A stretch of DNA of 64,000 nt from Candidatus Levyibacteriota bacterium. Lineage in GTDB: Bacteria; Patescibacteriota; Microgenomatia; Levybacterales; UBA12049. The first letter of the stretch is position 1; every line of letters begins with the position of its first letter. Below, piece after piece: positions 14,514 to 46,910 of this stretch. Under the pieces are notes generated by a model. It worked only from the letters and a program-made list of their open reading frames with translations. It had not been told where the DNA came from and made no database searches. The DNA lies in contig PLZJ01000002.1 in the NCBI GenBank assembly GCA_003152105.1, positions 469,682-533,681 of the forward strand, in the 5' to 3' direction. The translations under genes and the position numbers were made by a program.

Positions 14514-14773
14514 TTTAAGTTAGTTAATAGTATATCAAAGAATAACTGATGTGAAAACCGGACTAATATTGGGAAATATTCAAATTCATGATTTATAGAA
14601 CCAGGAATAATTAGCTGAACTATTACTTGCATTTATAAAAATAATTTGATATATTTCAATCCGTTTAGCATTAGTAATGGTGAGTTTGGATAAATGAATA
14701 ATAACCCAATATCACCTGCCTATATTCCCCAATGTAATTATTTTTCGTTATGTTTTCAAAGAGGAGGTGAATT

Positions 14774-15097
14774 GTGAAGAAAACAATAATTCTTTTGTTT
14801 ATTGTAACTATTTTTTTAAGTGCACAACCTGCTTTTGCTGATAATGCAGATATTAATAAAGTTCAATCCTTTGTTCAAAGCGTTATTCAACTAATGGTAA
14901 CTCTTGCTGGATTGGTTGCATCTGGCTTTTTTGTTGTAGGAGGATTCCGTTATATAACAAGCTCTGGTAATCCACTGCAATTAGAAAAAGCAAAAAAAAC
15001 AATATTATATTCTGCGATTGGATTAGTGATAGTATTGGGAGCATTTGTTTTTAGTAACATCGTTACTAACCTAGGAACGCAAGCATTCGGTAAATAA
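14774..15097 (+). CDS. VirB2/TrbC-like T4SS pilin precursor (GTG start)
   Basis: Signal peptide + two TM hairpin (LAGLVASGFFVVGGFRYITSSGNP...LYSAIGLVIVLGAFVF); RBS AGAGGAGGTGA 5 nt upstream; precedes VirB6/VirB4 genes. Confidence 0.5.
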   Translation: MKKTIILLFIVTIFLSAQPAFADNADINKVQSFVQSVIQLMVTLAGLVASGFFVVGGFRYITSSGNPLQLEKAKKTILYSAIGLVIVLGAFVFSNIVTNLGTQAFGK

Positions 15098-15105
15098 ATC
15101 GAATA

Positions 15106-16368
15106 ATGAGAAAAGTTAATATATTAATTCTTGCACTAAGCTTGTTTTCAAGCTCGTCTTCTTATGCTTTTGCAAGCAATAATGAAATTCCCAATTTTAC
15201 GAATTCTACTATACATTTTGTTTCTGCTTTTGCAGCTTTATTGTTTATACTTTTCTTAATTAGGGGAGGTTATTATTATATTATTTCTAGTGGTAATGCT
15301 GAAAGATTAATTTCAGCCAAAAGAACAATACTAAATGCCAGTATAGGCTTACTAATTATTATAGCATCTACATTTATAAGTTCTTATCTTCAAAGTACAT
15401 TTAATTCAAATTTCAATACTCACACTGGTAATTCGATTATATTACCTAAAATTCAAGAATCAACATCTTCATCTGGTATTTCTCAAGCGTTAAATGATGC
15501 TATTTCTGGGTTTTTACAGGTGCTGATACAAAGCGCAACAAAACCAACAATTGATGGAATAATTGGATTTTTGTCGTCAACTCCAAGTTTAATACAAAAT
15601 CAAACAATTTTTCATTTTTGGTTAATTATGGTTGGGATCGCAGATTCATTATTTGTTCTTGTAATTGTGTTATTAGGATTGCAAATTATGAGCTCGGAAT
15701 CCTTGGGATTTGGTGAAGTAAATATTAGAAGTGTTATGCCTAAATTAATGATATCGTTTATAGGAATTCATTGTTCAATTTTTATATTACAATGGTTTAT
15801 TGACTTGTGTAATATATTATCAACCACGTTAGTGAATATAACAGGTGGGATTGATCATGCATGGATTATAGATGCTTTTTCTTCAGGCGCTATTTCTATT
15901 GGATCTGAACCGATTATTACTTTAATTTTTTTATTGTTATTTTTAATTTTATCAATAATTTTGCTTCTTTTTTATATCAGTCGTTTAATAATAATTGGTT
16001 TAATAGCTGTTTTATCACCGTTAATATTTTTAATTTGGCCAATTCCTAGATTTTCAGATTTTGCAGAAATCACATTAAAATCCTACCTAGTTACAATTTT
16101 TACGGTATTTATTCATTTGGTAATTATCGAACTTGCATCAGCAATGTTAACTGTTCCAGGTGAAAATGTACACGATAATACATTTATCTCAGTATTAATA
16201 GGTGTAGGCTTACTCTTCTTATTAATAAAAACGCCATCGGTAATGATGCAGTTTATTTTTTATACAAAAGGGGTAAATATAATGAAATCATTCGCTAATC
16301 AAGTTATTAATGTTGCAAGTTCAAGGAGAAGCGTTGGTACGGAATTAGTTAAACATAATGTTGTATGA
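15106..16368 (+). CDS. VirB6/TrbL-like polytopic membrane protein with N-terminal VirB2-pilin-like domain
   Basis: N-terminal ~100 aa paralogous to upstream pilin (FILFLIRGGYYYIISSGNAERLISAKRTILNASIGLLII); >=6 further TMS. Confidence 0.5.
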   Translation: MRKVNILILALSLFSSSSSYAFASNNEIPNFTNSTIHFVSAFAALLFILFLIRGGYYYIISSGNAERLISAKRTILNASIGLLIIIASTFISSYLQSTFNSNFNTHTGNSIILPKIQESTSSSGISQALNDAISGFLQVLIQSATKPTIDGIIGFLSSTPSLIQNQTIFHFWLIMVGIADSLFVLVIVLLGLQIMSSESLGFGEVNIRSVMPKLMISFIGIHCSIFILQWFIDLCNILSTTLVNITGGIDHAWIIDAFSSGAISIGSEPIITLIFLLLFLILSIILLLFYISRLIIIGLIAVLSPLIFLIWPIPRFSDFAEITLKSYLVTIFTVFIHLVIIELASAMLTVPGENVHDNTFISVLIGVGLLFLLIKTPSVMMQFIFYTKGVNIMKSFANQVINVASSRRSVGTELVKHNVV

Positions 16369-16856
16369 AAACTACTAGAATACCAGCTCAAATTACAACT
16401 ATAGAAGATACAGTGGCTGGCAAATTGACATTAAGACAACTTATTTTATTAATAATTCCAATTATTTTATCGATGATGATGTATATATTTATTCCTAAAT
16501 ATTTTAATTTCTCAACTCCAAAGATAATTATTTCTTCTTTCCTAATAATAATTTCATCTGTAGCATCTATTAATACTAAGAATAGATTGATAATAGATTG
16601 GATTGTGATCCTTATCAAATATATTTTTCGGCCCAAATATTTCGTCTACGAAAGATCTAGTATTACGTTTAAAGATAAATTGAAAATGAACTTAATAAAT
16701 AATAAAAATCATGAAAATATTAAGAATAAAATTGAAGAAAAAACCATTTCGACAATATTCAGTTACGGTAAAATTTCACTTAATCCAAAATTTTCTATTA
16801 GTTTTAAGCCTGTTAAAAAAGGAGGTATAAAAGTTGCTATATATAAAATATCGTAA
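16365..16856 (+). CDS. VirB3/PrgI-like small T4SS membrane protein
   Basis: Short N-terminal segment then TM (LTLRQLILLIIPIILSMMMYIFIP); position immediately upstream of VirB4. Confidence 0.35.
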   Translation: MKTTRIPAQITTIEDTVAGKLTLRQLILLIIPIILSMMMYIFIPKYFNFSTPKIIISSFLIIISSVASINTKNRLIIDWIVILIKYIFRPKYFVYERSSITFKDKLKMNLINNKNHENIKNKIEEKTISTIFSYGKISLNPKFSISFKPVKKGGIKVAIYKIS

Positions 16857-17424
16857 TAAAGGTAGTTCTGCAAACCAGATTAAAATTAAAGAAGTAAAAG
16901 ATGGGATATTATGTTTACCAAATAATTTATATAGTGGTATTTTGGAAACCTCTTCTGTTAACTTTGAGTTAAAGAGTATATCTGAACAAGAAATATTATT
17001 ATATTCATTTGAGACGTTTTTAAATTCGCTCCCGTGTCCGATACAGATTTTAGTTCGTACTCGCGAAGTAGTACTGGAAGAATATTTAGAAAGAATTGAT
17101 TCCTTAGGTTTGAAAGAGAATGAGATAATTTATAAAAAGCAATTGAAAAGTTACTCTGAATTTATAAGCAAACTAATTGTAGGAAATAAAATTCTTTCAA
17201 GAAAATTTTATGTGATATATTCATATAATTGTACAAGTGAATTTTCCGTAGTTAAGGAACACATGCAATTGCTGCAAAATATTCTAGTTTCTGGATTTGA
17301 AAGATTGTCTATGAAGGCAAATCCTCAGTCTTCATTGGATATTTTAAAAATCTTTTATACTTTTTATCAACCTGAAAGATCTAAAGTGCAAACCTTGACC
17401 AATGGACTGTTTGATAATATATGA
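16834..17424 (+). CDS. VirB4/TrbE/CagE-family ATPase, N-terminal fragment (separate ORF; either split gene or frameshift)
   Basis: N-terminal VirB4-like region (VNFELKSISEQEILLYSFETFLNSLPCPIQILVRTREV); ends in ATGA overlap with next ORF; 196+585 aa = typical VirB4 length. Confidence 0.5.
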   Translation: MLYIKYRNKGSSANQIKIKEVKDGILCLPNNLYSGILETSSVNFELKSISEQEILLYSFETFLNSLPCPIQILVRTREVVLEEYLERIDSLGLKENEIIYKKQLKSYSEFISKLIVGNKILSRKFYVIYSYNCTSEFSVVKEHMQLLQNILVSGFERLSMKANPQSSLDILKIFYTFYQPERSKVQTLTNGLFDNI

Positions 17425-19178
17425 TCAATTTTTTCAATTTTAATAGCTTTTTTAGAAAAGACACCCAAAATGGCGAAGGAAAAGCATATGATTTTTTGTT
17501 AAAAGATCAAAATGCTATTGATTTAATATCATATGATGGACTTGAAGAGAATAGTACATTTATAAGAATGGGTGATTCATATATTCGAACTCTATTTATT
17601 TCGGGTTATCCATATACAGCAAGTTCAGGATGGCTCTCGCATTTAATAAACTTTAATCAGAATGTAGATATATCTTTTCATATTGAAGAAGTTGATTCTC
17701 AATTAGCTTTACCGAAACTGAACAGAAAAATTACAGAACTTGAGTCTACAAGACGAGCAATGGAAAAACAGGGCAGATTTATAGGATCAGAAATTACAGA
17801 TCCTTTAGAATCTGCGATAGAGTTAAAAAATAAAATTCAAAGAGGACAACAAAAAATGTTTCAATTGTCAATATATATACTTTTGCATTCATCCACAATA
17901 GAGGAATTAAATAAATTAACTAGAATTCTAGAGACACTCTTGGCAACACGACTGTTTTTTTCAAAAATTTCTACATTTCAGCAAATTGAAGGCCTGCAAT
18001 CAATTTTGCCTAGAGGTGAGGATATATTAAAACATAAACGAAATCTTGATAGTGAATCGGCATCTTTAACTTTTCCTTTTATTTCTTCAGAGTTGGTTCA
18101 AGAATCCGGAATTTTATTTGGTATAAATAAATCTAATAATTCATTAGTAATTGTAGATCGATTTTCACTTACGAATGCTAATAGTATAATTTTTGCACAA
18201 TCAGGAAGTGGTAAGTCATATACCTCAAAAGTGGAGATTTTAAGACAACTTATGCACGGTACAGATGTGATAGTAATAGATCCAGAAGGTGAATATAGAC
18301 AACTGTGTAATTCAGTAAAAGGAACTTATATTTCATTATCTATTAATTCAAAAGAAAAAATTAATCCCTTCGACTTAAACGGAAGTTTAGTAAATTTTGA
18401 AGATAAAGTACAGCAATTAACTGAATTATTTTCATTAATGCTGGATGGATTTACCAGTAGAGAAAAAGCAATTATAGACAAAGCTATACTTAAAACTTAC
18501 AAGATATTTGGGTGGACGAGTAAAAAGAAAGGAATAGAATTTCCATTATTGAAAGATCTTTACAGTACTTTATTAAAAATGGAAGAATTTGATCTCAGTA
18601 ATAGGATAGAAAAATATGTTAATGGATCATTATCTAAATTGTTTAATAAACAAACTAATGTGGAATTAAAAAATAGGTTAATAGTATTTGAGATAAAACA
18701 TTTACCTGAGTCAATTAAATCAATTATGATGTTGGTATTAGCTTCACATATTAACGGGATTGTTAAAGTATATCCAAAACGGAGGCTATTAGTAATAGAT
18801 GAGGGGTGGAAATTGCTTGAAAATAAAGAAACAGCTAGATTCATGACAGACTTGGTCAGACGCGGAAGAAAATATTATTTGGGAGTAAATATTATCACAC
18901 AACAGGCAAACGATTTCCTTAACAATGAATATGGACGAGCTCTAGTTTCGCAATCTTCACTGAGGATTTTAATGAAACAAGATACAACCACAATTAAAAA
19001 AGTTGTGAATGAATTTGCTCTGTCAGAATATGAACGTAATTTTCTATTAACCTGTGATAAAGGTGAAGCTTTAATAATAGCTGATCAAAATCATGTATCT
19101 GTTCAAATTGTAACTTCCAAGTCTGAACATCCGCTGCTCACAACAGATCCTAAAGAACTGTTAAGAACAAGTGTATAA
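17421..19178 (+). CDS. VirB4/TrbE/CagE-family T4SS ATPase (central and C-terminal ATPase domain)
   Basis: Walker A SGSGKS, Walker B LLVIDEGW; VirB4-type flanking conservation. Confidence 0.85.
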   Translation: MINFFNFNSFFRKDTQNGEGKAYDFLLKDQNAIDLISYDGLEENSTFIRMGDSYIRTLFISGYPYTASSGWLSHLINFNQNVDISFHIEEVDSQLALPKLNRKITELESTRRAMEKQGRFIGSEITDPLESAIELKNKIQRGQQKMFQLSIYILLHSSTIEELNKLTRILETLLATRLFFSKISTFQQIEGLQSILPRGEDILKHKRNLDSESASLTFPFISSELVQESGILFGINKSNNSLVIVDRFSLTNANSIIFAQSGSGKSYTSKVEILRQLMHGTDVIVIDPEGEYRQLCNSVKGTYISLSINSKEKINPFDLNGSLVNFEDKVQQLTELFSLMLDGFTSREKAIIDKAILKTYKIFGWTSKKKGIEFPLLKDLYSTLLKMEEFDLSNRIEKYVNGSLSKLFNKQTNVELKNRLIVFEIKHLPESIKSIMMLVLASHINGIVKVYPKRRLLVIDEGWKLLENKETARFMTDLVRRGRKYYLGVNIITQQANDFLNNEYGRALVSQSSLRILMKQDTTTIKKVVNEFALSEYERNFLLTCDKGEALIIADQNHVSVQIVTSKSEHPLLTTDPKELLRTSV

Positions 19179-19773
19179 CAGATCATTTATTAATTTATAT
19201 AATTTTACTTTTGAGTTAAAAATATTATTATTACTTTTTTTAATAATATTGCTTCTTCCAATTATAGGAATATTTATATTAACTCAAGAAGGATTTAGTA
19301 AAGTTTCCAATTATTTGGTTAACAATACCGCTCATTCAATCAGATTAAATTATCCAGATGGCAAGCTTTACAAAATAATAAATATTCAAACAGTTTGGCC
19401 TTTACATGGCATAACTACTCTTGAATTTGGGCAAAATGATTTTCCATACCAACCATTTCATACTGGTATAGATATTGCAGGACCATTTGGTTTTCAAATA
19501 ATTTGTGCCATGAGCGGGAAAGTAGTTTATGCAGGAGAAATATCATGGGGTTATGGTAAGCATGTTATCGTAAATAACGATAACAATATTCAAACCGTTT
19601 ACGCACATCTCGATAGTATAGCTGTTAAGAATGGAGACGAATGTATAACGGGGAAAACAGTTATAGGTACCGAAGGTCAAACTGGTTGGGCGACAGGACC
19701 ACACTTGCATTTTGAGATTGATCTTTGGGGGATTCCGGTAAATCCAAGAAATTTTATTTATGGGAATCCTTAA
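19171..19773 (+). CDS. M23 (LytM-type) peptidoglycan endopeptidase, membrane anchored
   Basis: HTGIDIA ... GPHLHFEI M23 zinc motifs; overlaps virB4 stop; likely T4SS-associated cell-wall hydrolase. Confidence 0.8.
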   Translation: MYNRSFINLYNFTFELKILLLLFLIILLLPIIGIFILTQEGFSKVSNYLVNNTAHSIRLNYPDGKLYKIINIQTVWPLHGITTLEFGQNDFPYQPFHTGIDIAGPFGFQIICAMSGKVVYAGEISWGYGKHVIVNNDNNIQTVYAHLDSIAVKNGDECITGKTVIGTEGQTGWATGPHLHFEIDLWGIPVNPRNFIYGNP

Positions 19774-33909: not shown

Positions 33910-34233
33910 CTACAAATGCCAAACCAAATTTGCCAGTAGCACGAGTGTCACAAAGCAAATAACAGAACCGATGAGTGTCCACCATGACAGCTTCACTGTT
34001 CTTCTGTTCGTAGGATATCGACGGGTTTCTGGTGTACCTGCAATATAATTCAACAGCAAAAAGAATGCTGAAACGAGAATAAAGCAGGCGCAAACACAGG
34101 CTCCAAAAATGGCGACTATGTACTCGATTATGTTAATCATCGTCTTTCTCCTTCTGTTTGTATGTTGTGCTGCGAAGGCAAATCCTACGTACTCAGCTTT
34201 GCTTATGTTTGTATCGCGTATCCATCTGGCCAT
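33910..34233 (-). CDS. Small hypothetical membrane protein (GC-rich islet 1)
   Basis: Two TM segments; likely starts at internal Met MINIIEY. Confidence 0.3.
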   Translation of the reverse strand: MARWIRDTNISKAEYVGFAFAAQHTNRRRKTMINIIEYIVAIFGACVCACFILVSAFFLLLNYIAGTPETRRYPTNRRTVKLSWWTLIGSVICFVTLVLLANLVWHL

Positions 34234-34628
34234 CTCACATTGATCGTACCATCTCCTACTCTGAAGAAATCAAATACGTCCAATCCAAACAAGCCAACAG
34301 AGAGCGAGACTTTACATCCGGTGGTTGGGCACAGATCTACAGTAGAACTACAATCTATTCCAGAGCAGTCAACGTGGATCGTGTTTTCTCCATCGTATGT
34401 TATTGTGTAGGTTGTATCGTACTTATCTTGCGAACTTATGACGAGTTGTCCACCAACTGGTACATTGGCAAGGTTATTACCAACAATTGAAACGCCGCTT
34501 GACCTTGGTTGACAACTTTCTAGCCAAACGACAAGTCCGACAATAAGAACGATAGTAGATACGACGAGTCCAAAGGCAGAAATATAATAACGCATGCATT
34601 TCCTTTTGTTCTTTTTAGTAAGCGACAT
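34203..34628 (-). CDS. Membrane-anchored Cys-rich hypothetical secreted protein (GC-rich islet 1, first gene)
   Basis: N-terminal TM; 8 Cys in ectodomain. Confidence 0.35.
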   Translation of the reverse strand: MSLTKKNKRKCMRYYISAFGLVVSTIVLIVGLVVWLESCQPRSSGVSIVGNNLANVPVGGQLVISSQDKYDTTYTITYDGENTIHVDCSGIDCSSTVDLCPTTGCKVSLSVGLFGLDVFDFFRVGDGTINVRWPDGYAIQT

Positions 34629-34654
34629 ACTACGTATAGCTTTATACGCACAAT

Positions 34655-34798
34655 ATCACTTACTAAATGTGTATTTTTCCGCAACTTGTGAATGTGCAAA
34701 TGAAAAAAAACAAGATATAAAATGCTTATTTCTATAACTGTCTTTTAGCCATGGGAGTATAGCAGAATAAAGAGAGCACTTCAAGTGCTATAGGATTA
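34655..34798 (-). promoter_or_regulatory. Conserved repeat element copy 1: minus-strand promoter (TTGAAG-17-TATACT, TG-extended) plus conserved ~120-nt 5' leader
   Basis: 15-mer TTGTGAATGTGCAAA and blocks GGAGTATAGCA.AAT / CAAGTGCTATAGGATTA shared with 49433-49563; ATCACTTACTAA shared with 63134-63145. Confidence 0.5.
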
Positions 34799-34902
34799 TT
34801 TGCGTTATTATTTTTCGTACAATAACTTTTTATCCTTATATTACTCTTATATGTATATTTATTACTTGACTTACCGAAACAATTACATTGTAATTAATAC
34901 AT

Positions 34903-36030
34903 ATGCCAGAAGGAGTAGGTGGAATAGTAGAAGGACAAGCAAGAAATGTATTTGCCAGTAGAATGGCAGATGTAAAAACTTTAGAAAGTGAACAGCAGCC
35001 TCATCATTTTCCAAATCTGATAAAGTTTGTAAAAAACGTAGAGCATATGGGAAATAGTATGAATCAAGCAGATTCACTTAGAACTCTTCGAAACGCAGTT
35101 AAAAATGCAGTTGAGCGTTCAATAACGGGAGATACAGATAGGGAGTTAACACCCTCGGAACAGCAAAAATTACATGCCATATCGCAAATATTTATTGGCC
35201 CATTAGCACTCCAAAAAGAATCGTTAACCCAAGGCTTAAACGATTCACCTCAAATTTCAAAAGAAAAAGCAACACAAGAGAAATTACTTTCTGCGCAAAT
35301 CCAGCAAGGTTTGGTGCAAGGTATATTATATGCATCTAGTGACCGGGCGACAAAAGAAGAAGTTGAAGCGGTATTTTGGCACGTTGGTATGCTTGAGCTT
35401 TTAAGTGAAACACAAGTTGGCCAAAATATACACTTGAAAGACTGGCTTCGTGGAGTGCGAAATCATGCTGCAATGCTTAAGCTTTTTGAGGAACATGGAG
35501 ATGTTCTCGAAGTATTTATGCCAGATCCAGATGAACTAAGTGATGTAGAATTTCTTGATTTAAAAGGTATAGATGCTGTTGTGCTTCTTCGGGACAGAAC
35601 TGATAAAAAAGCAATGCATCTTGTTTGTGTTGATGCAAAATCTGGTGATCTGTTTGGTGTTTTGGATGCAAAAGTACCTGGAATTTCTAATCCAAAAACA
35701 CAAGAACTAATAGATGGAATTGCCAAAAAAGCGCAAGATGATTTGTTAAGTTCTGATATTACACTTACGCAATTTCCAAAAAAACTCGAAGTAAGAATTC
35801 CATCATTTCGTGCCAAAGGTTTGTTTTCAAATGAGGAATTGATCGATGTTGAAAAATCTGCAAAATATCATAAAGCAAGTCCTACGCTTGTACAGTCCAA
35901 TACACTCATGAAAGAACTTCAGAGTGGGAGTAAGGAAGAAATGAGTGCACGATTAGCAAGATTTGGAAGCTTGCCTGACGCAAGTGCAGATTTGGTGGTG
36001 TCAATGCTACATAATGTAATAGAATCATAA
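34903..36030 (+). CDS. Hypothetical cytoplasmic protein (375 aa), no recognisable domain
   Basis: ORF divergent from the repeat-element promoter region. Confidence 0.4.
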   Translation: MPEGVGGIVEGQARNVFASRMADVKTLESEQQPHHFPNLIKFVKNVEHMGNSMNQADSLRTLRNAVKNAVERSITGDTDRELTPSEQQKLHAISQIFIGPLALQKESLTQGLNDSPQISKEKATQEKLLSAQIQQGLVQGILYASSDRATKEEVEAVFWHVGMLELLSETQVGQNIHLKDWLRGVRNHAAMLKLFEEHGDVLEVFMPDPDELSDVEFLDLKGIDAVVLLRDRTDKKAMHLVCVDAKSGDLFGVLDAKVPGISNPKTQELIDGIAKKAQDDLLSSDITLTQFPKKLEVRIPSFRAKGLFSNEELIDVEKSAKYHKASPTLVQSNTLMKELQSGSKEEMSARLARFGSLPDASADLVVSMLHNVIES

Positions 36031-36031
36031 T

Positions 36032-36262
36032 ATGCCAAAAGAATTAAAACATCCCTTAGAACATAATGAGGGACCAAGGAGAAAAGAATCGTCTGTATAC
36101 CTGCTTTTTAGTAGAGCTTCTCATAGACTTGTTGATCTTTTTAATAGTCAAAATATCCCTTCAGATAGGCCTCATCCAAAGCAATTAACACAAGATCATA
36201 CAGATGAAATAGCAATGGAACTTGGAAAGCGTCCAGAAGAACAAAGAGATGTGAAAAAATGA
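36032..36262 (+). CDS. Small hypothetical protein (76 aa), 1 nt downstream of the 375-aa gene
   Basis: ORF. Confidence 0.3.
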   Translation: MPKELKHPLEHNEGPRRKESSVYLLFSRASHRLVDLFNSQNIPSDRPHPKQLTQDHTDEIAMELGKRPEEQRDVKK

Positions 36263-36590
36263 AATGAGAGAGAGTTTTGTCCTATAAGGAAGTAAAAGGG
36301 GTATGCAAGCTTTTGCACACGTTTTACATTCCCTAAGGAGAGGGTCTGTGGTAACACCACAGTATCACCACAGACCCTCATTCGGTTGTCGACCCAGGAT
36401 TACCCTAGATCAACATTCCACTTCTTGACTGAACGTTCAAGTCTTGCCCACGTGTTAGTAGACTCAACTCTATCGTACAGCTCAAGAACCGTACTGAGAA
36501 GAGAAAAAGCCTGTAGTAATTAAAAACATCATTATTTTAGCTATTAATTTTTCATAAAGGAAAGTGGAGTAAATGAAGGAAAAAAGAATT

Positions 36591-36670
36591 GGGGCTGAGT
36601 GATTTTGGATTAAGCTAAGAAGCTACGGCTGCTTACGCAGAAATAGATTTTTGCTTGGTCACTCAGCCCC
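36591..36670 (-). terminator. Hairpin (12-bp GC-rich stem GGGGCTGAGTGA / TCACTCAGCCCC) followed on minus strand by a T-rich run; candidate terminator of 36689..36973
   Basis: Perfect 12-bp inverted repeat with a ~56-nt loop; AATTCTTTTTTCC follows on the minus strand. Confidence 0.35.
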
Positions 36671-36688
36671 TACGTGTGTTACGAACGA

Positions 36689-36973
36689 TTAGAATTCAAA
36701 CTTGACAGATCCTTGTCGATCTTTGGTCGAAAAATGGACGCTGATATTCCCGAAATCGGCGTTGTAGCCATAAATCATCCAGGATTCTCCGCTGCCGTTT
36801 TCTCGATGGACTCCTTTGATATACATGATAAATCCGGTAACGTAAGTAGTTGTTTTAATGTCAAAATACATAAAACGCGTTCCAGACTCACCATCAAAAA
36901 GGTTGAGCATGAGATCGAACTTGGATGGGCCTGCAATGACGGGATACATCTGATCGGTCTGGATAAGAGACAT
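36689..36973 (-). CDS. Hypothetical protein (GC-rich islet 2)
   Basis: ORF. Confidence 0.35.
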   Translation of the reverse strand: MSLIQTDQMYPVIAGPSKFDLMLNLFDGESGTRFMYFDIKTTTYVTGFIMYIKGVHRENGSGESWMIYGYNADFGNISVHFSTKDRQGSVKFEF

Positions 36974-37091
36974 ACGTCCCTCCTTCTATGGCTAATCTGC
37001 GAAAACGGCAGAAGCGCTGTTGCACTGATATTCATCAGTACCACCTGAATTTCGATCCAGGAATTAAATGGTGCCCCTCAGTAGATTTCGA

Positions 37092-37472
37092 CTAGTTGCT
37101 ACTTGTCCACTGAATTTTGCCATCTCTTGTGATCACACAGGAAATGAATTCACCCTCGATCAGCAGTGCTGAGACTGATAGATCGTTTTGGGAAAGGTTA
37201 AAGCTTCGAGCACAAAGCGCAGCCCAGGTATGAGCTAACCAGGTTAACTGGTTCTCATAAAGACTGCGAAGCTGATTAAAGCCAGGGCTTCCCAAAAGCG
37301 GATTGACGAGCGTGACATTGTCGAGAAGAACCTTTCCTTGACCTTGAGGCAAATGAGCCCTGAAATCAGTGATGATCTCATCAGGCGCATGCTTCATATA
37401 GTCTTGGGCTTCAGGTCTCCACGAATCTCGGGCGATGAATCGATTGGTAAAACGAAACGAAGGTAATCGCAT
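37092..37472 (-). CDS. Hypothetical protein (GC-rich islet 2)
   Basis: ORF. Confidence 0.35.
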   Translation of the reverse strand: MRLPSFRFTNRFIARDSWRPEAQDYMKHAPDEIITDFRAHLPQGQGKVLLDNVTLVNPLLGSPGFNQLRSLYENQLTWLAHTWAALCARSFNLSQNDLSVSALLIEGEFISCVITRDGKIQWTSSN

Positions 37473-37707
37473 GGCAGCATCCTTTCTATAAAGTTTTATC
37501 TACTGAGGAGCATTCTAAACACAACATATGTTCACAATGCCACTCAGTAAATTAACACACGTACTATAAAAGAGCTACGAAAAGTTTGGATACGCAGCTT
37601 TTGCCTATCGTCCTTTTTCGTCTTGGAATTGTAGCAAAAAGAGGCACAACAGTCAACTACTACAGGATAAAAGAACCGTTACCACAAGGGGACAAGTAGT
37701 AGTAATA

Positions 37708-38898
37708 TTATTGTTTCCAGATAAGAATTGATACCCAAATTTCAGGAACTTGAGGATTACCGTTTTTTCCATACGCTTCATAAGGTACACTTTGATTTGC
37801 CGAAATCCCAATACCTATTTCATTATACTTTCCATCTTGCAAATATTTATATCTATCTTCATTTGGTTTTATAATGTTTTCCCAAATAGCATTTATAAGA
37901 CCAAGGGTAAATTTATTACCTCCTGCATCAGTATATGGGTGAGGCGCGCCATCATAAAATGCATTGATCCATGGAGACTGGGGTGCATGCGCATCAACTG
38001 CTTGAAGCGTTCTTGAGTCTTTCCAAGCTGGTGTAGTGCTTGCGCATGGTTTTGTATTTGGTGGCCATGGATTGTAAAAGCCGCGATATGGATAATCTTG
38101 TACATTATATTTTGACGGGTTTTGTGGCCATGGATTATCTGCTGGCCAAGGCCACGCAAATGCATAATGAGAAGAAGCAGTATATGGTTTTCCATCCACT
38201 TGTTTATTTGCAACATCACTTTTTTGTCTATGCATCCAATAATTAGCAGTTTTTAGGGCACAATTTGAAATTTGCGTATTTACTGATGCAAAAGGGGAAA
38301 CATTATGATTAGTTCTGTATGTATTTATTTGAGAAAGTAAATACTGTTCCATTAACTTAAACGGAATACCTGTTTGCGCACTTTGTGCGATCATCGATGC
38401 GCTAATAGTATTGCCAATGAGATTTGTTGTACTTTGTGAATTTATCGAAAAATTAGTACTACTGTTGTCATCAAACTGTTCATACACAAACTTTGACTCA
38501 TCTACTCCAAGATAACTATTTGCTAAAAGCCACGCATGTACAAGTGGCTCTGTATTTGCTTTTGTATCATTTGAGACAACGACAAATTGTTGTAAGTCGT
38601 TATCAAATGTAATCGTAAATGAATCAGTATCAATTGGCACATTTGAAAGTAGCGTTTGGAGCGTATTTTGTGGAATTGTTTTTGAAATAACTGGCGCAAC
38701 TGGTGTTTGTGCATGTTCTGATATTGTTTGATTTTGTGAAACAGCGACTATTGTAATGGGAAGCGCAAGAAGTATTGTAAATACAGCAAGAAGTGAATAC
38801 TTTGTGGTTTTAGGAATTGATGAGAATACATTTGTTTTACTACTATGCGAAGTACTTTCAGTTATCTTTGTATCGTCAGAAGAGGGGATCTCATCCAT
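37708..38898 (-). CDS. Membrane-anchored secreted protein with CAP/SCP/PR1-like domain and W/P-rich insert
   Basis: N-terminal TM; INTYRTNHNV..ANYWMHRQ...SHYAFAW...YNEIGIGIS resemble YkwD-type CAP motifs. Confidence 0.4.
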   Translation of the reverse strand: MDEIPSSDDTKITESTSHSSKTNVFSSIPKTTKYSLLAVFTILLALPITIVAVSQNQTISEHAQTPVAPVISKTIPQNTLQTLLSNVPIDTDSFTITFDNDLQQFVVVSNDTKANTEPLVHAWLLANSYLGVDESKFVYEQFDDNSSTNFSINSQSTTNLIGNTISASMIAQSAQTGIPFKLMEQYLLSQINTYRTNHNVSPFASVNTQISNCALKTANYWMHRQKSDVANKQVDGKPYTASSHYAFAWPWPADNPWPQNPSKYNVQDYPYRGFYNPWPPNTKPCASTTPAWKDSRTLQAVDAHAPQSPWINAFYDGAPHPYTDAGGNKFTLGLINAIWENIIKPNEDRYKYLQDGKYNEIGIGISANQSVPYEAYGKNGNPQVPEIWVSILIWKQ

Positions 38899-38984
38899 TG
38901 GTTATTTATTACATAGTAGTAATACAATGTCAAGCGTTGTAATAAATTAATTACAATAAGAGGACACTTTGCTATACTACAAGT

Positions 38985-39245
38985 ATGGAAGAGCTGGAAA
39001 AGCGAGTTGAAAAACTTGAACAAAGAAACAAGAGAGTAGAAATTGATAAAAAATGGGAAACTAGCTATACGAGACGAATCCTTATTATATTATTTACGTA
39101 TGTTACTATCTCAATCTACTTACAATTTATTGTTGGCATTAACCCATGGATAAATGCCATTGTTCCAACCGTTGGTTTTATACTCTCAACACAAACGCTC
39201 CCGTTTTTCAAACGTTTGTGGATAAAGCACATTCACCGTAAGTAA
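38985..39245 (+). CDS. Small membrane protein with N-terminal coiled coil
   Basis: ORF, 2 TMS. Confidence 0.3.
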   Translation: MEELEKRVEKLEQRNKRVEIDKKWETSYTRRILIILFTYVTISIYLQFIVGINPWINAIVPTVGFILSTQTLPFFKRLWIKHIHRK

Positions 39246-39326
39246 TTGGAAGTTTTTTCTGCTCTTTTATTCTTTATTGAGATACCTATGTAGTTTCCTT
39301 TATAATGAGAGTGAACATAACATTTC

Positions 39327-41144
39327 ATGCAACATGATAACGAGAAAGATTTAAAAAAAACGTCACAAGATAGTTTTTTTACGTCAATAAAACGCATGGA
39401 TTGGAAATTAAAACTGTCACTTCTTAGTATTATTCTTTTTCTCATCGCTCTACCAATTCTATTTGCTCTCCATAATCAAGCAACACTATTAGGACATGCA
39501 CAAGTTGATCAAAATGTTGATTATGACGCGGCACTTTCTTCTTTTACTATTCCAAATAACCAAACTTCCTTGTCACTATTTACGCCAAGTACCGATCTTT
39601 TGAATCAACCAATTACCAAACTTCCACAAGTATCGAGTCAATTACAATCAGCCATGCGTACATATCAAACACAACAAACAAATGCATCTCTTTTACAAAT
39701 GGTTACCCTTGCAAAAAACAGATATATTCTTTTAGAAAATGAAATAAATACAAATCCCTCATTATTTCTAAACAGTGTGCTGCCTGGTCAAATTCGACAA
39801 ACATTTCCAGAACAAGTACAACCATTCCTTGAACAAAATGTACAAATAACAGGAGACATACAGTATTCGCATGGCGATAATTTTACAACAAACACCGATA
39901 TTGATTTTTATAGTATTTGTCAAACAAACGGCACTTGTTACCGGTTACATTTTCCAGGAACAGTTCCTGATGACATAACACCGGACGAAAACATAACAAT
40001 ACAAAGCGTGGCAATAGGTGCAGATGTTTTACTGCCTGATTCTACAAATCAGGCTAGTACAACTGGATATGTCCAGTCTTATCATGTAAACAAATTACCC
40101 ACTTTTATAAAGCCTAAAAAAGACCAGAAACTTTTAGTTATTTTAATAGGTAATTTTAATTCGCCTGTTGTTGGAAATACAGGTCTCGATAGCTTTTGGA
40201 AAAAGGTAATGGATGAGGTTGTTTCATTTTATAAACAAAATTCATATGGAAAAGTTTCGATAACGTATGAATTAAAGGGTTGGTATAACACAACGTCTCA
40301 AATGAGCTGCAAGAGATCAAGTTGGTGGGATAATGTGACAGCAGGTTTTTCAGCAGACGCAAATGGAAGTCATGATTACCAAACAGGTGTAAACGCTTAT
40401 GTTGCGTATCAGAAAAAACATCATTTACCAGTGCCAAAAGATTATACTGGTATTATTGTTGTGTTTACGCCAACGTCAAAAGGAGCGTCTAAAGGAGATT
40501 GTGATTATGCAGGTATGTCATTTGGTATTGGCCCCCATGGTTCACCTCCACAGTTTCATAATATAATAACAGCAACTAATTTAACGGGATTTAAGGATGT
40601 TGACACAAAAAGTCAGGCAGTTGCGCACGAGATTGGACATGGGCTTGGGATAAATCATGCCTCAACACTTATTTGTAAAAAAATAAATGATTTTTCCAAC
40701 TGCGCGAGTGTGCATCTTGATGAATACGGAGACATACAAGATGTTATGGGAATGCCACAAATGCCAGAGCTTTATAATGTGGCACATAAAGTAGCACTTG
40801 GGTGGATAACTTCAAAACAAGTAAAAACAGTTACCACAAGCGGGGTTTATGATCTGCATCAATTTGACACGTTTGCAAATGAAACAATGGTACTTCGCAT
40901 AAAAAAATCAGACACATCAAACTTGTTTTATTATATTGAATACAGAAAATATCATGGCTTATTGCTCCATTTATGGAATGAAGAGGCACAGGCAAATACC
41001 GCACTTATCCCATGGGACTTAGATGGTGCAAATCCATTTATAACAATTGGAGAAAATATTACCGATAGCGTAAATCATATAAAAATAACACTAATTAGAT
41101 ATGATAAAGAAAAAAACACTGCGTATGTTGATGTTAAGATGTAA
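39327..41144 (+). CDS. Secreted metzincin-type zinc metalloprotease (HExxHxxGxxH), membrane anchored
   Basis: N-terminal TM; zinc motif VAHEIGHGLGINH. Confidence 0.6.
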   Translation: MQHDNEKDLKKTSQDSFFTSIKRMDWKLKLSLLSIILFLIALPILFALHNQATLLGHAQVDQNVDYDAALSSFTIPNNQTSLSLFTPSTDLLNQPITKLPQVSSQLQSAMRTYQTQQTNASLLQMVTLAKNRYILLENEINTNPSLFLNSVLPGQIRQTFPEQVQPFLEQNVQITGDIQYSHGDNFTTNTDIDFYSICQTNGTCYRLHFPGTVPDDITPDENITIQSVAIGADVLLPDSTNQASTTGYVQSYHVNKLPTFIKPKKDQKLLVILIGNFNSPVVGNTGLDSFWKKVMDEVVSFYKQNSYGKVSITYELKGWYNTTSQMSCKRSSWWDNVTAGFSADANGSHDYQTGVNAYVAYQKKHHLPVPKDYTGIIVVFTPTSKGASKGDCDYAGMSFGIGPHGSPPQFHNIITATNLTGFKDVDTKSQAVAHEIGHGLGINHASTLICKKINDFSNCASVHLDEYGDIQDVMGMPQMPELYNVAHKVALGWITSKQVKTVTTSGVYDLHQFDTFANETMVLRIKKSDTSNLFYYIEYRKYHGLLLHLWNEEAQANTALIPWDLDGANPFITIGENITDSVNHIKITLIRYDKEKNTAYVDVKM

Positions 41145-41158
41145 AGTAATGTAGCTAT

Positions 41159-41698
41159 TTAATTTTCTCCACTCACATCTATAATATTTCCTGTTGTTGC
41201 GTCATAAACTGTTTCACCATAGGTAAAAACAGGTATTTGTGTACCTGGAGGAAGTGGTACATTGTTTAATACAAATGGACCTTTTTCTTTAACAAACAGA
41301 ACAATATGATTATCATCAACGCCAACATCTTCTCCATTCATAAGTTGTGACGCGGTTTTTGCAGTAACAAATTGCATTGACTCAACTATCGGAACTTTTC
41401 CATTTACGCTGTCTCCTCCAACAAATGGATTGTGAAAAATGTACGTTTGCGCATCTGACAAAGAAAAGTTAACAGCATTACTGCTCAAGCTTGTATGAGT
41501 TGGTGCAATTGCAGGTAAGCCACTTTCAGGAACCCCAGCTGCTGCATGAGATTTTGTAAGCGGAAGCGTTGTCGTTTTAACAAATAACAAAATATACGTA
41601 AAAATACAACAACCGAATATGCCACTTACTATGACAACTAATTTTATTTTTTCGCTTTTTTGTATGGTTTTCATATTACTGAGTAATGCCTGTTTCAA
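41159..41698 (-). CDS. Membrane-anchored secreted hypothetical protein
   Basis: ORF, N-terminal TM. Confidence 0.35.
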   Translation of the reverse strand: MKQALLSNMKTIQKSEKIKLVVIVSGIFGCCIFTYILLFVKTTTLPLTKSHAAAGVPESGLPAIAPTHTSLSSNAVNFSLSDAQTYIFHNPFVGGDSVNGKVPIVESMQFVTAKTASQLMNGEDVGVDDNHIVLFVKEKGPFVLNNVPLPPGTQIPVFTYGETVYDATTGNIIDVSGEN

Positions 41699-42671
41699 TT
41701 ACGCCTCCGTGATTTGTTTGCGTTGGTTCTTTACCATTTTTCCATCGTACCCACGTTGGTGGATTTTTGGTATACATTATTTTTCCGTATTTTTTACTAT
41801 TTTCAATATACAACATCTCATTATTTTTTCTAAACATATTATTGCTAAAACTAACAAACTTTGACGTAGTAATGTTTCCTCCACCAACAAATTCTTCGCC
41901 AAGATCAATCTCGCTTCCTTCTTTTTTAATAAATGTTTCTAGATCGTTATTATTGGAATTACCTTTAAAATGAATATGATTTCCATCTATTTTTATGCGC
42001 CACGTATTTACATTTACATTATTGATATCTACCGTGATATCTTTTCCAAAATCATTTTTTGCAATTCTAGGACCTGGGTGAAAATGGTATCCGCTATGTT
42101 GACGAAAATCAGCAAAAAAAACATTGTTGTTAATAAGTACATGAGCTTTTGAAAAATGATTTAACGATTGATCACCAATCAGTGCCGCGTATCCAGAACC
42201 ATATCCAGCTTCTATCCAAAAATTTCCTTGTTTATCATTTATCCAGGTTTCCTGCGAAAAATGATTATTTTGATTTACTTTATATACAATAAGATTTTGC
42301 GGTGTGATTGTCGTTTTGTCTTCAAAAATTGGATACGTTGTTTGAAAATTTACTTCAGCATAACAGTGCTCCATAACACCTGGTGAATTAGGACAAAGAA
42401 TATATTTTTTTGTACTCTTTGTATCTTGAAGCGGTGTATCTTTTACAGAAAGAGAAGGGGTGATAGATGTAGCAGACGTTGTCGCACCAAGAACGCTTTG
42501 TGACTTGTTATAAACTTTAGCATATACCAGGAGTGCAAGTACGATAAAAATTGCACAAACAAAAAGCATTATGTAGAAAAGGACATCATGACTAAGTACA
42601 GAATATGTTAACAAATGTTTTTTCTTGTCAGATATATTGTTTTCCATACGCGTTGTACAATTATTATTCAT
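41676..42671 (-). CDS. Membrane-anchored secreted hypothetical protein (N/G-rich, possibly beta-rich fold)
   Basis: ORF, N-terminal TM. Confidence 0.35.
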   Translation of the reverse strand: MNNNCTTRMENNISDKKKHLLTYSVLSHDVLFYIMLFVCAIFIVLALLVYAKVYNKSQSVLGATTSATSITPSLSVKDTPLQDTKSTKKYILCPNSPGVMEHCYAEVNFQTTYPIFEDKTTITPQNLIVYKVNQNNHFSQETWINDKQGNFWIEAGYGSGYAALIGDQSLNHFSKAHVLINNNVFFADFRQHSGYHFHPGPRIAKNDFGKDITVDINNVNVNTWRIKIDGNHIHFKGNSNNNDLETFIKKEGSEIDLGEEFVGGGNITTSKFVSFSNNMFRKNNEMLYIENSKKYGKIMYTKNPPTWVRWKNGKEPTQTNHGGVIETGITQ

Positions 42672-42746
42672 TGTCCAAACAACCTTGTCAATGATTGGGT
42701 ATTACGAAAAAAAATGTATAACTCCTGTGTTATAATAATTTTTTAG

Positions 42747-43811
42747 TTGGGTGAAAAGATGTTAGTACCACTTGCTGAAAGGGAAGCCCCGTTAAATATT
42801 TATGCCGATTTAACTCCAAGTGAATATGGAGGTTGTGTTCAGGCTGCAAATATAAATACAAGAGCTGAAATGGTCGCTAATTTATCAGAATATTTTACGG
42901 AAAGTAGAATTGACCCTGCCAATGTTTGTTTTATCGTAACAGGAAGTGATGGGAAAAGTGAGCGACATGCAAAATCAATTACTGAAGTTGGTATATTAAC
43001 TAATGATCCCACTCTTTCTTTTATTGCAGAGGATTTTACCATGTGGTATAGCGGCGACCATATGGTAAAAAAAGATATTACAAGAACATTTGATGTCAAT
43101 CCACATACAGGTATACCAGATGTGAGACATGTGAGCACAGTTACTGGAAATCCATCAACACGAAGTGATACAGATGTGCTTTCTTATGCATTTGGAGATA
43201 GGAAACGTGTATATCCTGACAGAATTATTAACGCACAACATATATTTGGAAACGAGGAAATTCTACGCGATGCAAAAAGACAAGTATATGTTGAAGCGAC
43301 TACTCCGCCTACGGGAAAGCGTATTCGACAAGATATGAAAGTACAACTGAGAGATTATAAGCGATCATTAGCAGACGGAGGTGCGCAAGGGGTATATCAC
43401 CGCCAGCGAGCTTTTTCACTCGAGCCTGCGATGCAATATTATAGCGAAGACAAAAGTTATTATACGCTTGGATTTAAAATTCCAGCCCTAAGAACTATAC
43501 AGAGATCGCTTGATTTATACACTGTCGAATCAATTATGTCAGGAAAACTTACCATAGATGATGCGGTAACATTTCCAACAGATACTGTCGGGAGAATAGA
43601 CGCTTTGCAAAGAAGAGGACATATCCCGATTTACTCTGTAAATAGTAATGGACATATAGGGGAGGCGTATGATTGGTTTTTGCAGCAATATCACGCAGCA
43701 CAAAACGCAAATCATCGAAGCGGAAAAGCAGTTGCGATGCCATTTTCGCAGGAGGAATTTGTAACGCACCAACGAACTATCCTTTCTTTTTTACATGAGT
43801 TAAGAGGCTAA
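42747..43811 (+). CDS. Hypothetical cytoplasmic protein (354 aa)
   Basis: ORF; weak GS...D pattern (FIVTGSDGKSERHAKSITEV), not assignable. Confidence 0.35.
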   Translation: MGEKMLVPLAEREAPLNIYADLTPSEYGGCVQAANINTRAEMVANLSEYFTESRIDPANVCFIVTGSDGKSERHAKSITEVGILTNDPTLSFIAEDFTMWYSGDHMVKKDITRTFDVNPHTGIPDVRHVSTVTGNPSTRSDTDVLSYAFGDRKRVYPDRIINAQHIFGNEEILRDAKRQVYVEATTPPTGKRIRQDMKVQLRDYKRSLADGGAQGVYHRQRAFSLEPAMQYYSEDKSYYTLGFKIPALRTIQRSLDLYTVESIMSGKLTIDDAVTFPTDTVGRIDALQRRGHIPIYSVNSNGHIGEAYDWFLQQYHAAQNANHRSGKAVAMPFSQEEFVTHQRTILSFLHELRG

Positions 43812-43823
43812 CTTCTCTTTGTT

Positions 43824-45305
43824 TTATTTTGCCCTTAAACGCTCTAGATTTGCAGGATAAATAGTAATAATTTTGTATTTTGATCGGGAATTTGAAAACT
43901 CTAGAGGATTTTTGGTATCAGTATATTTTGCCGTAATATACCTTGTCCCTGCGTCAGAAAAAGCAGTGTGCCACGCATAATATGCCTTACCTTGATTATC
44001 CAAATACAGCTGTTTAATCACATCTCCTCGAAGATCAACTAGTGTTATTTTCCCATGCGTAACCGGTTGAGATGAAGAATCAGCTTTGATTGATAAGTAC
44101 ACAGTATAGCCGGTAAAAAGCGATGTTGTTGAGGTAGTAAGCGTTATTGTTGGACTTTTTTTAGCAGCCGGCCTTGTTGATTTAACTTGTAATTTTGGTG
44201 TTTGACTTACTTCTTGTATAAACTGCATGCCAACTGGTTTTAACACATTATTTGTTGTATAGAGTCCCCACGTTACATTCCCATCATTTCCTCCAAGTTT
44301 GTCATTCCATGCATACCAAATTGCAACAGGAATTTGCTCTTGTTCAAAATCAGTAAATAACTTGTGTAAATACGTTGCTTGCCACGATAGGTTTGGGTTT
44401 GCATTGTGTCCTATTTCAGTTACCCAAAGAGGCAATGGGTTTGAAGCTTTCTTATATGCTTGTAAAGAACTCGTTAAATTACCAGTGGACCCTTTCCAAA
44501 AAGATGGATCTGGTGTTTTACCATATGGATGTACACCAACTGCAGTTATTTGTTTTAGAGAATTCGGATACGTTGATCGAAGAACAGAGAATACTTGTTT
44601 TAGATAATTAGTATTTCCAGACGCTAAGCCTCCCATGATTATCTTAATGTGTGTATCATTATTTTCATTAAAGTTTGTAATAACAGCTGAAGACTTTGCC
44701 ACAAGTGTTGCATAAATATTCTCAGGAACTTTTGGACAATACCCTTTTTGACTTGGACAAATATCCTCCTCGTTCCAAAGTTCAATTGCATTTACCGAGT
44801 CGCTATTTGCAATCAGAAAGCTTTCAAGGTTTGGAATATAGTAATTTTCAATATATGCATTCCAAATCGAATTATTTCCAGATCCGAGTGGATTTTTGGA
44901 CAAATCAGTACTTGCAGGTTGTGTGCACGACTGATTATTTAAAATGGCAAGTACTTTTAGATTGCTTAATCCAAACTGTAGAGAGCTTTTACTAGGAAGT
45001 TGACAATCTCCGTAAACTACTGTTCTTATCCAGTCTGGCTTTAACTTTTGAAGTTGCCATTTGTTTGGATATGAATATGATTTTGGTCCTACGTTAACTT
45101 GTATGCCAAATTGTGTTGGATAAAGCGATACCGGTTGCGCTGCATGATTATAAAAATTTTGTGATGATTCAATGCCAAGAGGGATTGTTATCGTAATTAA
45201 AAGCAGTGCTAAAACAGTAATTTTTGTAGACGTTGGGATAGTTTCATAGAAGTTTTTTACTTTTTGAAATAACGTGTGTTTTTCATTTTGCTGTTTTCCT
45301 TCCAT
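43824..45305 (-). CDS. Clan GH-A glycoside hydrolase (GH5-like), membrane anchored, with C-terminal Ig-like domain
   Basis: Acid/base motif IELWNEE, H.Y (VGVHPYG), nucleophile WVTEIGH, WYAWN. Confidence 0.55.
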   Translation of the reverse strand: MEGKQQNEKHTLFQKVKNFYETIPTSTKITVLALLLITITIPLGIESSQNFYNHAAQPVSLYPTQFGIQVNVGPKSYSYPNKWQLQKLKPDWIRTVVYGDCQLPSKSSLQFGLSNLKVLAILNNQSCTQPASTDLSKNPLGSGNNSIWNAYIENYYIPNLESFLIANSDSVNAIELWNEEDICPSQKGYCPKVPENIYATLVAKSSAVITNFNENNDTHIKIIMGGLASGNTNYLKQVFSVLRSTYPNSLKQITAVGVHPYGKTPDPSFWKGSTGNLTSSLQAYKKASNPLPLWVTEIGHNANPNLSWQATYLHKLFTDFEQEQIPVAIWYAWNDKLGGNDGNVTWGLYTTNNVLKPVGMQFIQEVSQTPKLQVKSTRPAAKKSPTITLTTSTTSLFTGYTVYLSIKADSSSQPVTHGKITLVDLRGDVIKQLYLDNQGKAYYAWHTAFSDAGTRYITAKYTDTKNPLEFSNSRSKYKIITIYPANLERLRAK

Positions 45306-45399
45306 ACGTATATGTAGTATGAAAGTTTATTGTGTGGTGTGTCAAGTAACTGAAGATATGTTTAATAATAGTAAAATAAAATAATGCTATACTTTCTAT

Positions 45400-46472: not shown

Positions 46473-46503
46473 TAACTCATGCATACCCTGTTATAATCTC
46501 TCT

Positions 46504-46908: not shown

Positions 46909-46910
46909 AC

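Follow-up and report, generated by a model that had tools for sequence, protein, structure and literature searches.

Gene content of the cassette

A stretch of 64,000 nucleotides from Candidatus Levyibacteriota bacterium (GenBank assembly GCA_003152105.1, contig PLZJ01000002.1, positions 469,682 to 533,681 of the forward strand; hereafter the window) carries, at 14774-19773, six plus-strand open reading frames (ORFs) that almost certainly make up the core module of a type IV secretion system (T4SS) of the Patescibacteria type. In order, they encode a VirB2-like pilin, a protein in which a pilin domain is fused to a VirB6-like domain, a PrgI/VirB3-like protein, a TrsD-like protein, a VirB4 ATPase, and an M23 peptidase (Table 1). 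An earlier note on this DNA had described six co-directional, overlapping or abutting ORFs forming a minimal Gram-positive-style T4SS, and this reading was correct: the coordinates are the same, the public annotation of the source contig has identical gene calls, and the successive gene junctions are +8, -4, -23, -4, and -8 nt. Hidden Markov model (HMM) searches with each ORF supported every component assignment, two of them additionally by fold comparison, and comparison with T4SS loci of episymbiotic bacteria turned up published Patescibacteria systems of the same kind. The six genes probably form one operon, translationally coupled via overlapping stop and start codons.

Seventeen loci with a related VirB4 (numbered L0xx) came out of a scan in which each GTDB species was represented by one genome. 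At least 11 other species-level genomes share all six genes and their order, with VirB4 61-67% identical; three further loci keep the order in part. L009-L011 have a CHAP-domain hydrolase instead of M23, and L011 is without a separately called PrgI gene. The closest genome matches of VirB4 are 54-67% identical, and their records include Levybacteria, Daviesbacteria, and "Patescibacteria group"; Levybacteria and Woesebacteria assemblies are filed under the class Microgenomatia in the published dataset (PMC12102498). With the gene order recurring fully in 11 related loci and incompletely in another three, the arrangement is not a product of chance.

Table 1 Features of the T4SS cassette and of its upstream region. 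Positions refer to the window, residue ranges to the protein. aa, amino acids; MPF, mating-pair formation.
Feature	Position	Strand	Length	Description
ORF1, VirB2-like T4SS pilin	14774-15097	+	107 aa	Signal peptide (…QPAFA/DNAD), then two-helix hydrophobic hairpin
ORF2, pilin-VirB6 fusion	15106-16368	+	420 aa	Signal peptide; pilin hairpin (~26-100); linker (101-123); VirB6/TrbL-like domain (~125-410)
ORF3, PrgI/VirB3-like small membrane protein	16365-16856	+	163 aa	Two transmembrane segments; ~70-aa C-terminal tail
ORF4, TrsD-like protein	16834-17424	+	196 aa	VirB4 N-terminal domain as own gene; stop overlaps virB4 start (ATGA)
ORF5, VirB4 ATPase	17421-19178	+	585 aa	Monoderm CD1110/MPF-FATA type, without N-terminal domain
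ORF6, membrane-anchored M23 (LytM-type) metallopeptidase	19171-19773	+	200 aa	Presumed cell-wall hydrolase, VirB1 analogue
Candidate sigma-70-type promoter	14627-14655	+		-35 TTGCAT (14627-14632); 17-nt spacer; extended -10 TGaTATATT (14647-14655)
5' leader	14656-14773	+		CTGCC (14716-14720) inside CACCTGCC (14713-14720); strong Shine-Dalgarno GAGGAGGTG (14761-14769)

Free pilin and pilin-VirB6 fusion

ORF1 scored above the cutoffs of T4SS_pilin (PF18895; 44.1 bits, cutoff 26.6) and TrbC/VirB2 (PF04956; 40.1 bits, cutoff 27.9), which bears out the VirB2-like pilin proposed earlier, and above that of the NCBIfam Mbov_0395 pilin-like family (42.4 bits, cutoff 40). Its hydrophobic segments span residues 4-22, 33-51, and 76-94; orthologues, 51-71% identical, stand first in the cassette in 12 loci.

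ORF2 combines two domains. Residues 26-95 match T4SS_pilin (PF18895) with 25.3 bits, just under the cutoff of 26.6 (E 1.6e-5), and within the window a locally built pilin HMM matched ORF1 and ORF2 only. Beyond a disordered, Ser/Asn-rich linker, residues 133-409 match TrbL_4 (27.4 bits, cutoff 27.0), and the precomputed annotation of the same protein lists TrbL_3; five hydrophobic segments follow the pilin domain. An AlphaFold2 model (44 homologues; predicted local distance difference test score [pLDDT] 70, predicted template-modelling score 0.62) contains a helical hairpin at 27-100 and six long helices. When this model was compared with the PDB by Foldseek, the top four matches were all TrwI/VirB6 of plasmid R388, weakly scored (E 0.15-0.5); the family profile of ORF2 found no match among PDB sequences. 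The predicted fold thus points to VirB6 in a way that is specific, not strong. The VirB6-like polytopic protein of the earlier note stands insofar as a VirB6/TrbL-like domain is indicated by the marginal TrbL_4 match and the R388 folds, and is refined in that a VirB2-like pilin domain is fused to its N-terminus.

Homologues of ORF2 are numerous (755 found) and include named Woykebacteria and Levybacteria; among the 120 listed, length ranges from 409 to 460 aa and 117 carry PF18895. The VirB6 domain alone was also searched against 1.84 billion cluster representatives, with the pilin scored by a local HMM made from free pilins. In full-length VirB6-domain representatives down to E ~1e-17, a pilin match lies N-terminal to VirB6 in all but three (P0122, P0141, and P0173), the sequences of which start at or near the VirB6 domain. 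Remoter relatives of the VirB6 domain are without a pilin domain and Ala/Arg/Pro-rich; the sole named one is from an actinomycete. By these profile matches, the fused pilin-VirB6 architecture is widespread and is the rule among relatives.

A full-text literature search found no published mention of a pilin-VirB6 fusion; in the papers on this T4SS, "fusion" referred to VirB3-VirB4 only. In the 2025 census of Patescibacteria T4SS (Quinonero-Coronel 2025, PMC12102498), VirB2 was called with PF18895 and VirB6 with CONJScan profiles; VirB6 was reported as scarce and VirB2 arrays as abundant in Microgenomatia, and the table entries for Levybacteria assemblies give a pair of neighbouring "VirB2" genes, with neither VirB6 nor VirB3. 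The census appears, from these entries, to have counted the pilin-VirB6 fusion as VirB2. Such a tally would explain both the apparent scarcity of VirB6 and the abundance of two-gene "VirB2 arrays" in Microgenomatia.

PrgI/VirB3-like protein, two-gene VirB4, and hydrolase

The claim of a small VirB3-like protein is upheld by the match of ORF3 residues 5-94 to PrgI (PF12666; 35 bits, cutoff 27) and by its two transmembrane segments (hydrophobic residues 26-44 and 49-67); the gene is kept at the same position in 13 loci. Its extension beyond the PrgI domain (residues ~95-163) gave a weak, sub-threshold SoxZ-like match only.

ORF4 and ORF5 together tile the full-length NCBIfam CD1110 VirB4 profile of 752 positions: ORF4 aligns to positions 5-172 (E 6.9e-9) and ORF5 to positions 165-733 (conju_CD1110, 352 bits, cutoff 325). 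For ORF4, no Pfam match above threshold was obtained in the local library; its AlphaFold2 model (pLDDT 75.7) retrieved from the PDB, as the top 13 Foldseek matches, TrwK/VirB4 chains of R388 exclusively (probability 0.93-1.00). ORF5 matches P-loop_TraG, AAA_10, and DUF87 of Pfam as well as PDB 4ag5, the VirB4 C-terminal domain (E 2e-38), and has intact Walker A (AQSGSGKS, residue 259) and Walker B (LLVIDE, residue 456) motifs. Its closest plasmid-borne relatives are VirB4 proteins of Firmicutes and Actinobacteria (29-35% identity); models of diderm VirB4, TrbE, and TraC score it far below their cutoffs.

The two-piece VirB4 of the earlier note is therefore retained, both pieces tiling the profile, and restated as the conserved TrsD-like/VirB4 gene pair typical of Patescibacteria, in which the TrsD-plus-VirB4 arrangement is the most abundant T4SS feature (PMC12102498). 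In all 14 loci where both genes are visible, the two are read in different frames and share an overlap of 4-11 nt, and the best 120 homologues of ORF4 are all stand-alone proteins of 196-240 aa; the gene split is therefore real and not a frameshift. The same data bear on the suspicion, raised by a VirB4 in two frames and by an ORF4 without a Pfam match, that the locus has decayed into pseudogenes or lost its function, the VirB4 split being a frameshift and the small ORFs having arisen by chance. With the overlapping stop/start split present throughout these 14 loci, stand-alone homologues in hundreds, intact catalytic motifs, a strong Shine-Dalgarno before the first gene, and all six proteins 31-71% identical to orthologues in the same order, this explanation can hardly be credited; in our view, the conservation has already refuted it.

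ORF6 is an M23 peptidase as claimed (PF01551, 90 bits), with intact HxxxD (HTGID, residue 97) and HxH (HLH, residue 178) motifs and an N-terminal hydrophobic segment at 18-36. The M23 gene directly follows virB4 in 11 loci; in L009-L011, which form a more distant subgroup, the slot is occupied by a membrane-anchored CHAP-domain hydrolase (L009, 11707-12246; L010, 11692-12234; L011, same position). Judged by domain content and position, CHAP for M23 is a non-orthologous replacement in one slot, and the filling of this slot by either hydrolase supports a cell-wall-opening role. ORF6 is an analogue of VirB1, not a homologue.

Candidate promoter and leader

The TTGCAT-17-TATATT element noted earlier in the 260-bp gap (14514-14773) upstream of the first pilin gene matches the sequence exactly, and comparison across loci supports its designation as a promoter. 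The TG at 14647-14648, read from the sequence, makes the -10 element extended. In 8 of 13 orthologous loci, the 220 nt preceding the first pilin gene contain a TTGNNN-N13-16-TGnTA[TC]AN[TA] pattern, at a distance of 80-147 nt; 0.015 occurrences are expected per 220 nt, a nominal probability which overstates the case, because the pattern was defined after the sequences were viewed. Of the 12 related loci, 7 have an orthologous counterpart of the proposed promoter ahead of the cassette. A consensus promoter/terminator scan gave counts at chance level and missed the candidate site, because its -35 element matches at only 3 of 6 positions. Transcription of the cassette probably starts from this extended -10 promoter.

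In the leader, the Shine-Dalgarno sits 4 nt before the GTG start of the pilin gene. CTGCC stands no more than 110 nt before the start of the pilin gene in all 10 M23-type loci (the window, L002, L003, L005, L006, L007, L008, L013, L015, and L018) vs. 20 of 288 (7%) regions upstream of other ORFs. The pentamer makes up the 5' side of a hairpin in several loci, and there it either pairs with the Shine-Dalgarno or has a T-run after it, an arrangement resembling an attenuator; L009-L011 instead have an ACTCCT...AGGAGT hairpin over the Shine-Dalgarno. In the window, CACCTGCC pairs with the Shine-Dalgarno GAGGAGGTG in the minimum-energy fold; this candidate sequestering hairpin was rejected, its stability being that of shuffled sequence (z = 0.06) and the hairpin being absent from the centroid, and no structure is claimed. 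A search with Rfam at gathering thresholds over the whole window, leader included, returned nothing. Judged by its recurrence between loci, the CTGCC motif is a real leader motif.

Genomic context

The source contig with the public gene calls, a scaffold of an ENA metagenome assembly (ERZ28653421, WOOD18-1 scaffold_5), is 1.14 Mb long, and the ~84 kb around the cassette (674,816-758,357 of this scaffold) consist of ordinary chromosomal and housekeeping genes. Within these ~84 kb, no Pfam match to a type IV coupling protein (T4CP), relaxase, integrase, or transposase was found, and when the T4CP-like proteins encoded in L002, L006, and L015 and the Replic_Relax proteins of relatives were used as tblastn queries, none matched the window. 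The statement that no VirD4 coupling protein or relaxase lies nearby is thus confirmed, and no complete conjugative element surrounds the locus within this distance. A tRNA scan of the whole window found none; flanking repeats around the cassette were at chance level only (best, 34 nt at 74% identity). The GC content of the cassette is 0.29 vs. 0.36 ± 0.03 for its neighbours, and that of third codon positions (GC3) 0.198 vs. 0.252 ± 0.051. Low GC was considered as a sign of recent transfer and rejected: codon positions 1 and 2 account for the deficit, with GC3 within ~1 standard deviation of the neighbours, so that it reflects Ile/Lys/Asn/Phe-rich proteins, not foreign origin.

Flanking genes vary between genomes and the neighbours of the cassette are not conserved. 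The genes for a glycoside hydrolase of family GH18, a phosphodiester glycosidase, a 215-aa secreted protein, MscS, and a 188-aa protein, considered as parts of the cassette, lie beside it in no relative and are therefore placed outside the system. Downstream of the cassette, nine related loci have a gene of the phospholipase D (PLD)-like nuclease type (PLDc_2, HKD motif; 146-163 aa) on the opposite strand, 1-9 genes past the hydrolase (e.g., L002, 20206-20697; L008, 14356-14796; L018, 16424-16906), with an XRE-type helix-turn-helix gene beside it in three of the nine; no homologue of the PLD-like gene was found in the window. Defence-type genes flank the cassette in L006 (12373-15183 and 17879-19612), L015 (15661-18633), and L018 (2117-5101 and 12351-15951). 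They comprise a type I restriction R subunit, an Eco57I-like methylase-endonuclease, OLD-family and AbiEii-like ATPases, and a UvrD-like helicase, and suggest a variable neighbourhood in these three loci; the window holds no such flanking genes. Cassette contigs L004, L005, L007, L008, L013, L015, L017, and L018 come from metagenome-assembled genomes titled Methylococcaceae, Pseudomonadales, Gammaproteobacteria, Limisphaerales, and Woesearchaeota, two of the contigs being large (L008, 230 kb; L013, 350 kb); these titles are probably due to mis-binned contigs or mislabelled records, not to transfer. Elsewhere in the window, at 34200-50400, there is a run of ~20 genes with almost no precomputed Pfam match, including a 605-aa protein with sub-threshold metallopeptidase-like matches and a 493-aa protein with an Ig-like (Big_3_5) match below cutoff; uncharacterised genes of this sort are typical of Patescibacteria and may encode surface proteins.

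Proposed function

T4SS of this kind have already been published, as have their possession of TrsD, PrgI, and VirB2, their lack of a relaxase, and the view that their role is not conjugation. The system is found across 2,417 Patescibacteria genomes in a survey of 3,035; its VirB4 forms a monophyletic clade nested in MPF-FATA, TrsD, PrgI/VirB3, VirB6, and VirB2 are present, and peptidases lie downstream of virB4 (PMC12102498). In Saccharibacteria, the counterpart, pilins included, is essential for epibiotic growth by transposon sequencing, and its cluster contains nothing recognisable as a relaxase or a coupling protein (Wang 2023, PMC10633639). A 2025 review describes a pilus-bearing monoderm T4SS with unknown substrate (PMC12857230).

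For assembly, pilus, role of the fusion, substrate, and biological role, we infer the following scheme. VirB4 and its separate TrsD-like N-terminal domain would dock on the membrane via the PrgI/VirB3-like protein, and VirB4 would energise a channel made of the VirB6-like polytopic protein; the membrane-anchored M23 peptidase would open the peptidoglycan locally. The free VirB2-like pilin would be pulled out of the membrane and assembled as a pilus polymer, of which the VirB6-fused pilin domain may be the base or nucleus. The machine would serve contact with a host cell or exchange with it, whether by adhesion, by exporting proteins, or by taking in host material, and not classical conjugation. 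It is likely that the cassette is the core module of a Patescibacteria-clade T4SS, derived from monoderm MPF-FATA conjugation machinery, with this assembly and host-contact role. By analogy with Saccharibacteria, contact or exchange with a host cell is the most likely function, and we lean slightly towards a non-conjugative host-interaction role taken by itself; the earlier suggestion of protein delivery or adhesion rather than conjugation agrees with the published hypothesis. In the R388 structure, VirB6 is the pentameric base where pilin subunits are thought to be loaded. It is conceivable, though we would sooner doubt it than assert it, that the VirB6-fused pilin domain is a built-in first layer or anchor of the free-pilin pilus, replacing the missing VirB5/VirB8 in a monoderm host-interaction T4SS.

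Several points weigh against the scheme. The VirB6 assignment of ORF2 is marginal by Pfam and weak by fold (E 0.15, template-modelling score 0.28-0.40), and the placement of this VirB4 inside the published Patescibacteria clade is suggested by best-hit families and named relatives. To our knowledge, there is no cultured member of Microgenomatia. No VirB8- or PrgL-like Pfam match was found in the cassette or the surrounding ~84 kb; a VirB8-like component is rare in this phylum and so no strict requirement there (PMC12102498). Finally, a T4CP-like ATPase and Replic_Relax (PF13814) are encoded 1-5 kb upstream of the cassette in L006 (2557-6059), L002 (1-2260), and L015 (1-1663). The ATPase of L006 has 866 aa and TrwB_AAD_bind, TraG-D_C, and T4SS-DNA_transf domains, the L002 and L015 copies start outside the fetched locus, and the family is highly conserved across many Patescibacteria (60-67% identity among the 120 matches listed). 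T4CP homologues occur in 2,918 of 3,035 genomes, mostly far from virB4 (PMC12102498), so that absence of a T4CP near the cassette does not equal absence from the genome, and a DNA-transfer role with parts encoded elsewhere keeps some standing.

In its explicit form, this role would make the cassette the mating-pair-formation module of an integrative and conjugative element (ICE), or a decaying remnant of one, served by a coupling protein and relaxase encoded elsewhere. Homology of the machinery to monoderm conjugation systems would fit, as would the upstream genes of L002, L006, and L015, the restriction-modification, OLD-like, and AbiEii-like genes in L006, L015, and L018, and the low GC of the cassette; the GC deficit, however, is one of amino-acid composition, and within ~84 kb there is no relaxase, T4CP, integrase, transposase, or flanking repeat. 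The cassette is, moreover, conserved and single-copy across diverged genomes, inheritance of the system within classes is vertical, and only 103 of 3,035 genomes have relaxases (PMC12102498). This reading of the cassette as part of an ICE or its remnant is considered very unlikely.

Import of DNA, nucleotides, or other host molecules, as in the VirB4-based uptake by archaeal Ced or Helicobacter ComB, which would supply an organism unable to synthesise its own building blocks, is rather unlikely. Importers built on VirB4 exist, NCBIfam CedD gave a weak match (E 4e-8, 32 bits, cutoff 600), comF, recG, and radA are co-located in the class ABY1 (PMC12102498), and the pilus as a host-uptake conduit is a speculation in PMC12857230. 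At the present locus, however, no competence or recombination genes adjoin the cassette (ComEC, ComF, DprA, RadA, and RecG were absent from the ~84 kb), and the sequence gives no indication of transport direction. Furthermore, as far as the work in PMC10633639 is reported in PMC12857230, deletion of comEC in Saccharibacteria ends competence and not viability, whereas the T4SS is essential; on that account, its essentiality would not act through ComEC.

We thus retain the host-contact T4SS as the preferred interpretation. The Patescibacteria T4SS is one of a handful of machines demonstrated to be indispensable to the epibiotic life of these uncultured ultrasmall bacteria. The locus by itself adds little on substrate or direction and is in this respect one more example; it offers a compact six-gene reference arrangement for relatives of the Microgenomatia type, with VirB6 and VirB3 present and detectable. 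To the known system it adds the widespread pilin-VirB6 fusion, a testable idea for pilus nucleation on a monoderm T4SS channel, and the conserved CTGCC leader motif.

Comparison with known systems

Mycoplasma ICE (Mbov_0395 pilin-like protein, Mbov_0397 VirB4) share with the cassette the NCBIfam pilin family, for which the match was given above, a VirB4 match (277 bits), a wall-less or monoderm lineage, and a VirB2-like protein beside a FATA-type VirB4. They differ in that the VirB4 described here is under their 590-bit cutoff and in that theirs lie on mobile ICEs with a DDE transposase, of which there is none here.

The CD1110/CTn2 subclass of MPF-FATA (plasmids and ICEs of Firmicutes and Actinobacteria) has the same VirB4 family (352 bits; 29-35% identity), a PrgI-type VirB3, a polytopic VirB6/TrbL-type protein, and a dedicated cell-wall hydrolase. 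In contrast to the cassette, these systems have a relaxase, T4CP, and oriT, generally no VirB2 pilins, a VirB4 that is usually one polypeptide, and a hydrolase that is typically SLT/CHAP and not a small M23.

The VirB-type systems of R388 and Agrobacterium (MPF-T) provide structural counterparts for VirB2, VirB3, the VirB4 N-terminal domain, and the VirB6 folds; here, the cell is monoderm and VirB5, VirB7, VirB8, VirB9, VirB10, and VirB11 are absent. VirB6 and VirB2 are separate in R388, where VirB5 caps the VirB6 pentamer, whereas here a VirB2-like domain is fused to VirB6.

The closest likeness is to the Patescibacteria-clade T4SS (PMC12102498; Southlakia epibionticum SEML1_0006-0019, PMC10633639). 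Shared features are an MPF-FATA-like VirB4 after a separate TrsD-like gene; PrgI/VirB3, a VirB6-like protein, and one or more VirB2-like pilins; a peptidase encoded immediately after virB4; and a chromosomal location, with no outer-membrane core and a cluster free of relaxase and coupling protein genes. Where the cluster in Saccharibacteria carries six pilins in an array, the present one has one free pilin and one VirB6-fused domain in a compact set of six genes, and the dnaA/dnaN adjacency common in Microgenomatia (PMC12102498) is not seen at this locus. The census, finally, gives neither VirB6 nor VirB3 for Levybacteria assemblies, whereas in the cassette described here both are detected by Pfam TrbL_3/4 and PrgI.

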